Assembly: GCA_001793095.1 (NCBI GenBank)
Contig: MGHG01000012.1
Coordinates: forward strand, 72,647-136,646
Direction: 5' to 3'
Length of the DNA: 64,000 nt
From: Candidatus Woesebacteria bacterium RIFCSPLOWO2_01_FULL_39_23
Lineage (GTDB): Bacteria; Patescibacteriota; Microgenomatia; UBA8517
Shown here: piece after piece, positions 23,428 through 61,544 of the stretch
Layout of the letters: every line of letters starts with the position of its first letter
Numbering within the stretch: position 1 is the first letter of the stretch
Made by a program: the position numbers and the translations under genes
Notes under the pieces: generated by a model
Databases searched by the model: none
The model's input: the letters and a program-made list of their open reading frames with translations, nothing else
What the model was told of the DNA's origin: nothing

Positions 23428-23573
23428 AGGTGGCACCTCGCCGAGCCGGGTCTCTCTGAGCAGGAGGCTTACAAGGTAGTTGAAGAATGTGATTTAAATT
23501 ACAGAGCACCTTCAGATTGTTTTTTTAGAATGGTTTGATATTTACTTCTTAAAATTGTGTTATACTAAAATAT

Positions 23574-23771
23574 ATGCTCAAGGATGTAATTGCCCCGATT
23601 CAAGCTTGGCTACTCTCGCAAGGAAGATGTGTTGGTTGTGGAAAACCTCTTTTAAATAAAAAGAGCGTAAAGCGCGATGGAACCGAGAAAGTAACCTGCG
23701 AGTGCGGACGAATCTATATTCACGATACCAAAACTAATAAATACCGTCGAGCTCTCCTGGAAGAAGTATAG
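23574..23771 (+). CDS. small zinc-ribbon protein
   Basis: 65 aa with CxGCG ... CECG cysteine pairs. Confidence 0.4.
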   Translation: MLKDVIAPIQAWLLSQGRCVGCGKPLLNKKSVKRDGTEKVTCECGRIYIHDTKTNKYRRALLEEV

Positions 23772-23783
23772 GTTCAGAGAACC

Positions 23784-24273
23784 TGAAAACTCAGATTACT
23801 CAGACTGTCAGATGATCGGCTAATACGAAAATCAGAATTTGCTGGATTTCCAGACTTTATGTAATCTATTTAATCGTTTGGATAAGACTATATATTTGTC
23901 TTCAATTATTTTACCATCGTCATTTAATCGGGGTACAGCAATAACGACGGTTCTTATATGGGTTACTACTTCATCCGATGAGCCAATACATATTTTTAAA
24001 TGATGTTTAAAGGTTGCTTCAGAATTTCTTTTAGCTCAGCCTTCAGCTAGATTTGTTGGTACAGATTTTCCAGCCCTCTTCGAATTACGTACTGAATCCA
24101 TTTCACTTAGAGGTACTTTTTGTAGAAATTCATATAAATCTTTAAGATTTTCCAGAGATAAATTATATACATGTAAATCAGTAACATCTTTTAACATACA
24201 TAAATTCTACCAAAAATCCAGACTTTCTGATTATCAGATATTCCGGATTTCTGGTTGGCTGAGTTTTCAGAGT
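23784..24273. mobile_element. Putative small insertion bounded by imperfect terminal inverted repeats (outer 12-bp perfect IR CTGAAAACTCAG; inner IR AATCAGAA..CTGGATTT; direct repeat CCAGACTTT)
   Basis: IRs read directly at 23784-23795 vs rc of 24262-24273, and 23831-23850 vs rc of 24212-24232. The segment holds the four-helix-bundle pseudogene. Confidence 0.35.
23833..24198 (-). pseudogene. Four-helix-bundle protein (TIGR02436 / 23S rRNA IVS-protein family) interrupted by a single in-frame TGA at codon 54
   Basis: Minus-strand translation MLKDVTDLHVYNLSLENLKDLYEFLQKVPLSEMDSVRNSKRAGKSVPTNLAEG*AKRNSEATFKHHLKICIGSSDEVVTHI... matches the family pattern DL.VWQKS..L...IY.LTKKFPKEE...SQIRRAAVSIPSNIAEGYGRRS.KEYIQFLYIARGSLAELETQL. 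The TGA sits where the conserved Y/F follows AEG. Confidence 0.6.
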
Positions 24274-24301
24274 GATCTGATAATCTGTTATACTCAATTT
24301 C

Positions 24302-25315
24302 ATGAAGTTCAGAAAAGTGTTTCTTGTCCCTATTCTACTGATTTTTTTAGTAATTATTGCGGCGACTGGATCTTTCTTTTGGTGGAAAAACAATTCACAG
24401 CCGGTGTCAACTGATAAAGAAACAAAGGATTTTGTAGTCGCAAAAGGCAGAGGAGCAACACAGATTGCCCAAGAACTTTACAAGCAAGGTTTGATCAGAA
24501 GTCCATTGGCTTTCAAGTTCTACATTCAATTTAAAGGCAAAGCGGAGGATATTCAAGCCGGGCGTTATAGCCTTACGGAGTCGGCCGCTATTCCCGAGAT
24601 TGTAACCCTCCTGACTAAAGGCCCAAAAGATTTATGGGTGACTGTTCCTGAAGGATTGAGACATGAAGAAATTGCCGAGCGATTTATACAAGGTTTGGGA
24701 AAAGAGGGGGAGGAGGCGGAAGAATTTCGTCAGGAATTTATTTCTGCTTCTAAAAGTTCCGAAGGCTATTTATTTCCTGATACTTATCTTTTTCCTCGCG
24801 AGGCTAATGCTTCGATGGTTATCTCCTCTATGAGAGACACTTTTGACAAGAAAACAAAAGATATAAAAAGTACTGCTACATCAAAGTTAAACTGGAATCA
24901 GATTGTAACTCTTGCTTCAATTATAGAGAGGGAAACTAAAATCGGAGAAGAAAGATCGATTGTAGCGGGTATTTTAATGAATAGGCTCAATATTGGAATG
25001 GCACTTCAAGCTGACGCAGCAGTTCAATACGCAGTATCAAATGCTAAATGCCAAATTCTAAATGCTAAATGTAATGATTGGTGGCCAATACTTACTTTGG
25101 AAGATTTGCAGATTGATTCGCCTTTCAATACATATAAATATCAGGGGTTACCGCCTTCTCCTATTTCCAATCCAGGCCTGTCGTCTATTGAAGCTGCTGT
25201 AAAACCGGCAGATACAGAATACATTTATTATATACATGATCCCGAAGGAAATATTCACTATGCAAAGACGCTTGCGGAACATAACGAAAATGTCAGAAAA
25301 TATCTGGGAAAGTAA
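24302..25315 (+). CDS. mltG: Endolytic murein transglycosylase MltG (YceG-like)
   Basis: N-terminal TM, then AGRYSL, YLFPDTYLFP and GILMNRL motifs. Confidence 0.8.
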   Translation: MKFRKVFLVPILLIFLVIIAATGSFFWWKNNSQPVSTDKETKDFVVAKGRGATQIAQELYKQGLIRSPLAFKFYIQFKGKAEDIQAGRYSLTESAAIPEIVTLLTKGPKDLWVTVPEGLRHEEIAERFIQGLGKEGEEAEEFRQEFISASKSSEGYLFPDTYLFPREANASMVISSMRDTFDKKTKDIKSTATSKLNWNQIVTLASIIERETKIGEERSIVAGILMNRLNIGMALQADAAVQYAVSNAKCQILNAKCNDWWPILTLEDLQIDSPFNTYKYQGLPPSPISNPGLSSIEAAVKPADTEYIYYIHDPEGNIHYAKTLAEHNENVRKYLGK

Positions 25316-61402: not shown

Positions 61403-61475
61403 CGGAGCGTGGCGTAGTTGGTAGCGCACTCGGATGGGGTCCGAGAGGTCGCCGGTTCGAGCCCGGCCGCTCCGA
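61403..61475 (+). tRNA. tRNA-Pro (anticodon GGG)
   Basis: Hand-folded cloverleaf: acceptor CGGAGCG/CGCTCCG, D-arm GCGT-AGTTGGTA-GCGC, anticodon stem CTCGG/CCGAG with loop AT-GGG-GT (U33, G37), T-arm GCCGG-TTCGAGC-CCGGC, discriminator A. CCA not encoded. Confidence 0.8.
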
Positions 61476-61544
61476 CTATAGGATTATTTAGATTAATTCA
61501 ATTTACCAATTGACTTCGTATATTCTTCGGTATTTAATGAATGT

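Follow-up and report, generated by a model that had tools for sequence, protein, structure and literature searches.

A 64-kb stretch of DNA from Candidatus Woesebacteria bacterium RIFCSPLOWO2_01_FULL_39_23, called here the window (the whole stretch that was analysed), contains a small element built around a dead four-helix-bundle gene of the S23p type (PF05635 / TIGR02436). The genes of the neighbourhood encode, in order, a sortase, RuvX and a 65-aa CxxC protein, followed by the element, MltG and RpoB, and all of them lie on the plus strand, the four-helix-bundle gene excepted. The whole cassette spans about 517 bp (23772-24288), and its first base comes directly after the stop codon (TAG, 23769-23771) of the CxxC gene. 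The latter, taken from the list of open reading frames (ORFs; 23574..23771, plus strand), belongs to a family of 66-aa, 'Zn-ribbon-like' proteins (CxxC...CxC), referred to below as the 66-aa gene, whose orthologs adjoin mltG in six of the loci compared (given as L numbers: L004, L011, L012, L013, L020 and L041). Downstream lies mltG itself (YceG family, 24302..25315, plus strand). An Rfam scan of the window matched no RNA family and hence no rRNA; the flanks of the element are the 66-aa gene and mltG.

The minus-strand ORF (24197..23833) comprises 121 codons with one in-frame TGA and ends at a TGA stop codon (23832-23830), the pseudogene with its stop codon occupying 23830..24197. An earlier note on this DNA had placed a full-length, 121-codon homolog of the four-helix-bundle family on this strand (24198 to 23833) and had proposed a profile search as a check. 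Translated with X at the TGA, the ORF matches Pfam PF05635 (23S_rRNA_IVP) with 50.3 bits (E 3.1e-13; cut-off 33.8) and TIGR02436 with 46.2 bits (cut-off 24), well over the curated cut-offs in both cases. The conserved motif described for the family, GxxRxxxSxxxNxxE (PMC3936711), is found in the window as R41-x3-S45-x3-N49-x2-E52 (KRAGKSVPTNLAEG); its leading G is not conserved in the subfamily from the Candidate Phyla Radiation (CPR) to which the window gene belongs. Among 5.8 billion protein clusters we found 223 homologs, nearly all exactly 121 aa long and up to 75% identical, and the named ones come from Gottesmanbacteria, Levybacteria and the "Patescibacteria group". Viral contigs scanned with the four-helix-bundle alignment gave no match.

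Since the window sequence has a stop codon, we took the fold from the AlphaFold model of its closest intact homolog (P0001, 75% identical), which shows four helices with a predicted local distance difference score (pLDDT) of 93.6. A profile match to PDB entry 2GSC (Xcc0516, E 6e-9) agrees with the Foldseek comparison of this model to the same structure (template-modelling score, TM, 0.86-0.89; root-mean-square deviation 1.6 Å), and the two pentameric S23p structures, 2GSC and 2RLD, give TM values of 0.77-0.89. Avd, the accessory protein of diversity-generating retroelements (DGRs), is also matched (4DWL, 8UB7) but is more distant, with a TM of 0.62-0.68. Avd is reported to be essential to DGR retrohoming, and PF05635 is the family closest to it (PMC10053308), so that the window gene could be imagined as the Avd accessory gene of such a retroelement. 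We consider this least probable of all the explanations weighed here: the model matches 2GSC and 2RLD far better than Avd, a domain scan of the window's 20 larger, non-ribosomal ORFs detected no reverse transcriptase, and none appears within 2.5-4 kb in the gene lists of the homolog loci. At the window locus itself the absence of a reverse transcriptase rules out a DGR/Avd role (a template/variable repeat pair was not searched for).

The in-frame TGA is codon 54 (24036..24038, minus strand) and lies at the end of helix 2. The earlier note had seen in it the replacement of a conserved aromatic residue, and an alignment of 22 homologs bears this out: the column is Trp among the closest relatives, and the remaining sequences have Phe. 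As the closest homologs have Trp encoded by TGG, one G>A change explains the TGA. The note had left the choice between decay and a sequencing error, and it is the first that stands. Two independent assemblies, ERZ27254767 and ERZ27254869, match the window identically across the element, and the truncated 53-aa product, which exists only with the TGA, is indexed in 71 blocks of the collection and is present in all 24 contigs examined; these observations rule out sequencing error. No intact allele of the window gene was found among the 223 homologs. The TGA is thus a fixed TGG>TGA nonsense mutation, and the window copy, in contrast to a functional member of the family, has no intact reading frame. 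Recoding as Trp, Gly or selenocysteine is likewise ruled out, since neighbouring genes stop at TGA and the homologs have TGG or TTY at this position. In agreement with the earlier note, TGA is a genuine stop elsewhere in the window: it closes 9 of 57 long stop-to-stop reading frames on the plus strand, including that of the sortase gene, which overlaps ruvX (one of the nine, 24004-24414, crosses the element and the start of mltG in the frame of mltG, and eight remain without it). As TGA is a stop in the neighbouring genes, the genome uses the standard bacterial code.

Truncation at the TGA would leave 53 aa and two of the four helices, with helices 3 and 4 lost, and since no in-frame ATG, GTG or TTG occurs after the TGA before codon 71, no restart could yield a complete bundle. 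All invariant residues of the family are kept in the window sequence apart from the TGA codon; the decay must therefore be recent or slow. Across the wider locus, the contig from ERZ27254869 (L010) differs from the window by one base in rpoB (window 27530), where the gene call splits rpoB into products of 684 and 431 aa; the difference is a variant or else an error of assembly.

The segment is an insertion. The earlier note had taken it for a small mobile insertion and had pointed to relatives in which the 66-aa gene would abut mltG as the place to look for an empty site. Three relatives show one: a locus from Hainich groundwater (L011; MltG 64% identical to that of the window), in which the two genes are 15 nt apart; Candidatus Woesebacteria GW2011_GWB1_39_10b (L041, LBVW01000002.1; MltG 62%), with 21 nt; and L012 (FWWL01010035.1; MltG 48-49%), with 9 nt. 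Further, intact 121-aa copies occupy the same site in L004, L013/L014 and L020 (MltG 51-54% identical), beginning no more than 2 bases from the stop codon of the 66-aa gene, but on the same strand as their neighbours and thus opposite to the window copy. The note had named the presence of one and the same segment at this place in all relatives as an argument against insertion, and this is not what we see: L011, L012 and L041 are empty and L004, L013 and L020 carry the cassette reversed. An MltG scan of species-representative genomes returned a single, distant match (39%, gammaproteobacterial), and a metagenome scan returned two loci, both informative.

Close homologs were also found in three other contexts: L001 and L021 (and L015, inverted) have one between the genes for a surface protein and a PMT glycosyltransferase, L016 and L025 upstream of mreB, and L019 between two pilin genes. 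Both orientations therefore occur at two sites, that of the window and the PMT site. All this shows that cassettes of the type found in ORF-bearing intervening sequences (IVSs) of rRNA genes come and go at non-rRNA sites. Since the copies of the intact relatives are oppositely oriented, the cassette has over a long time occupied the site next to mltG, been inverted or re-inserted, and been lost, and this history is not one recent hop. It could have consisted of ancestral occupation, inversion in place (the arms being inverted repeats) and decay, with loss in L011 and L041, or else of an independent insertion that later decayed.

The empty spacer of L041 (TTTCCGACTCTGAAATCCCCA, L041 893-913) contains two short motifs, TCCGA and TCTGA, of the kind that make up the arms of the cassette (see below). 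Two such units in 21 nt are seen in only 0.04-0.3% of background 21-mers, and they may be the scar of a lost cassette. The 66-aa gene of this locus is absent from the gene list of the record.

The ORF is bracketed by two arms. The 3' arm, downstream of the minus-strand ORF (23772..23829), carries YCRGA units on the plus strand at 23774, 23791, 23800 and 23808; the 5' arm, upstream of the ORF (24213..24288), carries degenerate TCRGA units plus a palindrome (TCTGATAATCAGA) beside the putative promoter of the cassette. The perfect 12-bp inverted repeat that the earlier note had seen exists (CTGAAAACTCAG / CTGAGTTTTCAG), although at 23783..23794 and 24259..24270, its coordinates having been off by 1 and 3 bases; the pattern has only these two exact matches in the 64 kb. 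The second, imperfect pair was also recovered (AATCAGAA at 23830 and CTGGATTT at 23842, against AAATCCAG at 24214 and TTCTGATT at 24225), as was the direct repeat CCAGACTTT at 23850 and 24218.

When the flanks of ten distinct CPR copies are laid out together, every arm proves to be a tandem array of degenerate 8-9-nt units with the core (T/C)C(A/G)GA on the sense strand upstream of the ORF and its complement downstream. Of 103 intervals between successive cores, 85 measure 8 or 9 nt, and most of the others are multiples of this distance. As many as 12 units per arm can be recognised in intact copies (4-12 in the upstream arm), whereas the window copy retains 4 per arm, irregularly spaced, within arms of about 60-75 nt of which the 12-bp inverted repeat is the best-preserved part. 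The downstream array of the CPR copies starts within the last codons of the ORF (VWKSDKF*), and the last codons of the window ORF (VWKSSKF*) themselves carry TCTGR-type units. In the outermost 25-30 nt a consensus, TCAGAGAAYCRGAAAACTCAGA, is common to elements across genomes and sites; the window end, TCAGAGAAC-CTGAAAACTCAG, has this consensus in common with the ends of L001, L021 and L016. The terminal inverted repeats are thus conserved among copies, as in transposable elements. The 64-kb window has no further cluster of TCAGA/TCTGA, and in L001-L026 such clusters are found solely beside four-helix-bundle genes; the recurrence at unrelated promoters that the earlier note had envisaged as a counter-argument is not seen in these sequences.

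The arms are also complementary and close a long stem, as the termini of rRNA IVSs do. Arm-arm duplexes of intact elements (L001, L019 and L025) reach calculated energies of -80 to -100 kcal/mol, and those of shuffled arms -36 to -44 (standard deviation about 5); the stem of the window copy is much weaker, at -49 (sense) and -60 (antisense) kcal/mol. Folds of whole elements pair both ends (z = -5.3 for L001 and -2.6 for the plus strand of the window), and in the window the ends are paired in the minimum-energy and in the centroid folds through the perfect 12-bp repeat and an imperfect extension of it.

Conserved ends could mean that the cassette is a non-autonomous transposon resembling a miniature inverted-repeat transposable element (MITE), with the four-helix-bundle gene as a passenger, a transposase or recombinase encoded elsewhere serving the ends and the difference in orientation reflecting independent insertions into a preferred site. 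The terminal consensus common to different genomes and sites, the presence/absence polymorphism at one site, the four different genomic contexts and the occurrence of both orientations at two sites agree with it. So does the relatedness of the copies: the forward copies at the site of the window are 77-85% identical among themselves, while the window copy is 72-74% identical to them and 75-76% to the pilin-site copy, as close as any (76% in the direct comparison of sites). Against it, a comparison of ten junction pairs by eye revealed no consistent target-site duplication, the flanks being merely A/T-rich and often stop codons. No ORF-less copies of the arms were found in the loci examined, the only ORF of the cassette is the four-helix-bundle gene, and no transposase is encoded among the neighbouring genes of the CPR loci. 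Also, cassettes recur at a small number of sites in genomes that have diverged to an MltG identity of only about 50-64%, a pattern that suggests long residence more than frequent hopping. On balance we think such a transposon unlikely.

Intact cassettes seem to carry a promoter of their own. In 10 of 10 CPR copies compared, a TGnTAnnAT sequence ends 5-6 nt before the start codon; in the window it is the extended -10-like element TGGTAGAAT (24212-24204, minus strand, 6 nt 5' of the ATG), which, judged from its sequence, is probably the extended -10 promoter of the cassette for a leaderless mRNA. In most CPR copies the innermost unit of the array forms a palindrome, TCAGA-N3-TCTGA, that overlaps this putative -10. 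The host genes have the same layout: TGTTATACT-N7-ATG occurs only twice in the 64 kb, before the 66-aa gene (23558-23576) and before mltG (24286-24304), and both occurrences look like extended -10 promoters for leaderless mRNAs. The promoter-like site of mltG (24266..24294, plus strand) consists of a -35-like TTCAGA, a 17-nt spacer and TG-TATACT, and its -35-like part sits inside the cassette arm. Empty-site relatives have no such promoter between the 66-aa gene and mltG, where there is no room for it. The site may have arisen after the cassette had cut mltG off from the operon promoter.

Inverted-repeat flanks, a promoter-like site and opposite orientations in different genomes are also what an inverton would present, that is, an invertible promoter switch whose flipping controls mltG. 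This is very improbable, as the window and three assemblies of this organism whose DNA was read (L009, L010 and L039) all show one orientation (the other contigs being reported as similar places), no recombinase gene is adjacent, the promoter-like site of mltG lies outside the invertible part, and the enclosed gene is dead.

Arrays of this kind are not confined to the CPR. A tblastn search of plasmids supplied cassettes from other phyla, among them one on plasmid AZO_p2 of Azospirillum lipoferum 4B (L027, NC_016586.1 12009-17257), where a 23S rRNA gene (Rfam LSU, 2693 bits) contains an unannotated S23p-type ORF (2328-2796). The arms of this ORF, 36 nt long and 86% complementary, consist of tandem 7-8-nt CRGA(G/T)GA units, and the insert is a classical IVS. 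The remaining loci, L028-L038, from cyanobacterial and Gemmatirosa plasmids, contain genes annotated as 'four helix bundle' or 'S23 ribosomal' with lineage-specific 7-8-nt tandem arrays on both sides; the cyanobacterial units are GGGAARA, GGGAACA, GGGTGTA, GGTGACA, AGGGCAG and GGAGATAA, with the complement downstream in most. Several of the cyanobacterial copies sit at the junction of cas6 with cas4 or of cmr2 with cmr3. The cassette arrays may be linked to the unexplained heptamer repeat arrays of cyanobacteria.

Taken over 22 cassettes from the CPR, Alphaproteobacteria, Cyanobacteria and Gemmatimonadota, a 7-9-nt period dominates both flanks, one downstream flank excepted. The arrays are inverted in 18 and direct in three (L029, L037 and L038, from Pseudanabaena, Oscillatoria and Gemmatirosa); the last cassette has no 7-mer common to both flanks and lies next to an ISL3 transposase gene. 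In 20 of the 22 the upstream arm is more purine-rich than the downstream arm.

As an explanation of the whole we favour, with a probability of roughly 0.55, a dead IVS-type cassette at 23772-24288, outside rRNA, whose arms would be processed in the manner of RNase III substrates. RNase III excision has been shown for the Coxiella IVS and is cited for Leptospira and Salmonella (PMC4990558). An intact cassette comprises an upstream arm, a putative extended -10 promoter placed for a leaderless mRNA, the 121-codon ORF and a complementary downstream arm. A host transcript crossing it in either direction would contain both arms, and these could pair into a long imperfect duplex of the type that RNase III cuts in rRNA IVSs. 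The cassette would in this way be clipped out of the host transcript, or insulated from it, so that rRNA, cas operons and housekeeping operons could harbour it lastingly, while the ORF would be expressed separately from its own putative promoter. The window copy would then have come to lie opposite to its intact relatives at the same site, suffered its nonsense mutation and had its arms eroded, with the promoter-like site of mltG now partly built from one of them.

Several observations weigh against a role of the arms at the RNA level alone. Duplex energies of the sense and antisense strands do not differ consistently, the sense being favoured in 7 of 10 elements. Arm mismatches compatible with G:U pairing number 37 in the sense and 28 only in the antisense strand, beside 59 transversions, and give no RNA-level signal. 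Co-variation of the arms specific to an element is absent, the within-element score being the best in only 2 of 10 elements; for pairing that is generally no better within than between elements, a conserved motif, be it a protein site or the end of a transposon, accounts no less well than a stem selected purely for pairing. Since the upstream arm precedes the putative promoter, the mRNA of the cassette would lack this arm and the stem could form only in read-through transcripts. To these are added the three cassettes with direct arrays. A comparison of arm and ORF evolution in strain pairs yielded few differences.

The main rival to RNA processing is accordingly that the units of the arms serve as sites of protein binding. 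The protein, likeliest the pentameric four-helix-bundle protein itself, would act at the level of DNA or single strands in autoregulation or in bringing the ends into synapsis, and the RNA stem would be a by-product. Strict 8-9-nt periodicity around a single core motif, conserved across elements instead of co-varying within each, speaks for this, as does the overlap of the innermost palindrome with the putative -10 in most CPR copies. The unit differs by lineage and yet is the same on both sides, and direct arrays are as compatible with binding sites as inverted ones. The fold of the pentameric S23p proteins (2GSC, 2RLD) and its likeness to Avd, part of the DGR ribonucleoprotein, support the idea loosely. 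On the other side, an 8.5-nt period is out of step with the helical repeat of DNA, and a purine-rich upstream arm in 20 of 22 cassettes would not be predicted by simple operator arrays. We regard binding-site arrays as possible but rather unlikely as the main role of the arms, and RNase III-type processing as the better account; the two roles are not exclusive.

The mobility of ORF-bearing rRNA IVSs, present or past, and the role of their conserved S23p gene have been under discussion since the early 1990s (hypotheses are summarised in PMC4990558). Because occupied and empty alleles, in both orientations, are found here outside rRNA, gain and loss become open to study without the constraints of the ribosome. 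What had appeared as an 'inverted repeat' is a pair of periodic motif arrays, a feature in common with the true 23S IVS of Azospirillum and to which the Coxiella heptamers appear related, and such arrays point to a specific nucleic-acid partner for the S23p protein. It can also be argued that this protein is made and selected, because intact CPR copies have a putative leaderless promoter of their own. We put forward, with considerable reserve, a wider proposal: S23p/four-helix-bundle cassettes may form one ancient and widespread class of self-contained genetic elements in which the pentameric protein recognises flanking, lineage-specific 7-9-nt arrays and drives insertion, inversion, excision or removal from transcripts. 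If true, one mechanism would explain ORF-bearing rRNA IVSs and the four-helix-bundle genes in cas and housekeeping operons, and perhaps part of the cyanobacterial heptamer repeat arrays as well. The window copy is a relic, with a possible rewiring of the mltG promoter as its sole consequence; its interest comes from comparison, with occupied and empty alleles outside rRNA and with periodic arrays also in a true rRNA IVS and in distant phyla.

Other features of the locus and its surroundings deserve mention. In the 66-aa protein the N- and C-terminal sequences (MLKNVIAPIQAWL..., ...YRRALLEEV) are kept across the window, L004, L011, L013 and L041, while most cysteines of both pairs are gone in several relatives (CVGCG to CVADG; CEC to HSC), so that zinc binding is unlikely as a conserved feature. 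In L013 (879-2558) two toxin-antitoxin pairs, PhdYeFM/PIN and HicAB, separate ruvX from the 66-aa gene, and a Phd/PIN pair is found between the same two genes in L040/L041; apparently, small selfish cassettes have a hot spot in this short stretch. Farther away in the window, a gene for an AbiEii-type nucleotidyltransferase toxin (type IV toxin-antitoxin; 1520-2152) lies just upstream of nusA and infB, and an ORF with a 'homing endonuclease associated repeat' (PF18780; 61545-62399) beside tRNA-Pro (61403-61476) may be another selfish element.

Among known systems, the DGRs have in Avd a distantly related four-helix-bundle fold, structurally far less similar than the S23p proteins. The cassette resembles MITEs and small elements derived from insertion sequences in its small size, its terminal inverted repeats, its intergenic place and its presence/absence polymorphism. 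Unlike these, it carries a conserved gene that does not encode a transposase and occupies the same few sites across divergent genomes, and neither a consistent target-site duplication nor ORF-less copies were found.

Stand-alone TIGR02436 genes belong to the same family and share the same habit, each lying alone, as a small gene, among operon genes that run in one direction, and have been noted within cas operons (PMC3936711). In the literature reached they are accessory genes of unknown function, described without flanking arrays or empty sites, and our search of that literature, which was incomplete, found no description of repeat arrays beside them. The cyanobacterial examples at cas6|cas4 and cmr2|cmr3 are also flanked by arrays, inverted in two and direct in one.

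The closest likeness is to the ORF-bearing 23S IVSs of Coxiella burnetii, Leptospira and Azospirillum, which contain a homologous S23p ORF between complementary termini that close a stem around it; in the CPR, a survey of rRNA insertions located 23S_rRNA_IVP ORFs at several scattered positions of 16S and 23S rRNA (PMC11270868). In Coxiella, RNase III is reported to cleave a 28-bp stem formed by the IVS termini, tandem GACAGAT heptamers in strain-dependent numbers lie 5' of the S23p ORF, and this ORF is under reductive evolution (PMC4990558). Sizes are similar, about 517 bp for the window cassette and 428-444 nt for the Coxiella IVS. Purine-rich repeats with a CAGA core precede the ORF in all three systems, as GACAGAT in Coxiella, CRGA(G/T)GA in Azospirillum and TCRGA-N3-4 in the window cassette, and a tendency of the ORF to decay is common to Coxiella strains and to the window copy with its TGA. 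Cleavage by RNase III, demonstrated in rRNA IVSs, would apply to the window cassette by analogy. Unlike the rRNA IVSs, the window cassette lies in the 3' spacer of a protein-coding gene and antisense to the operon, and the CPR copies have a putative extended -10 promoter with a leaderless start and arms that are longer arrays, with up to 12 recognisable units. Residence in rRNA apart, the element of the window shows all the structural hallmarks of an ORF-bearing IVS.

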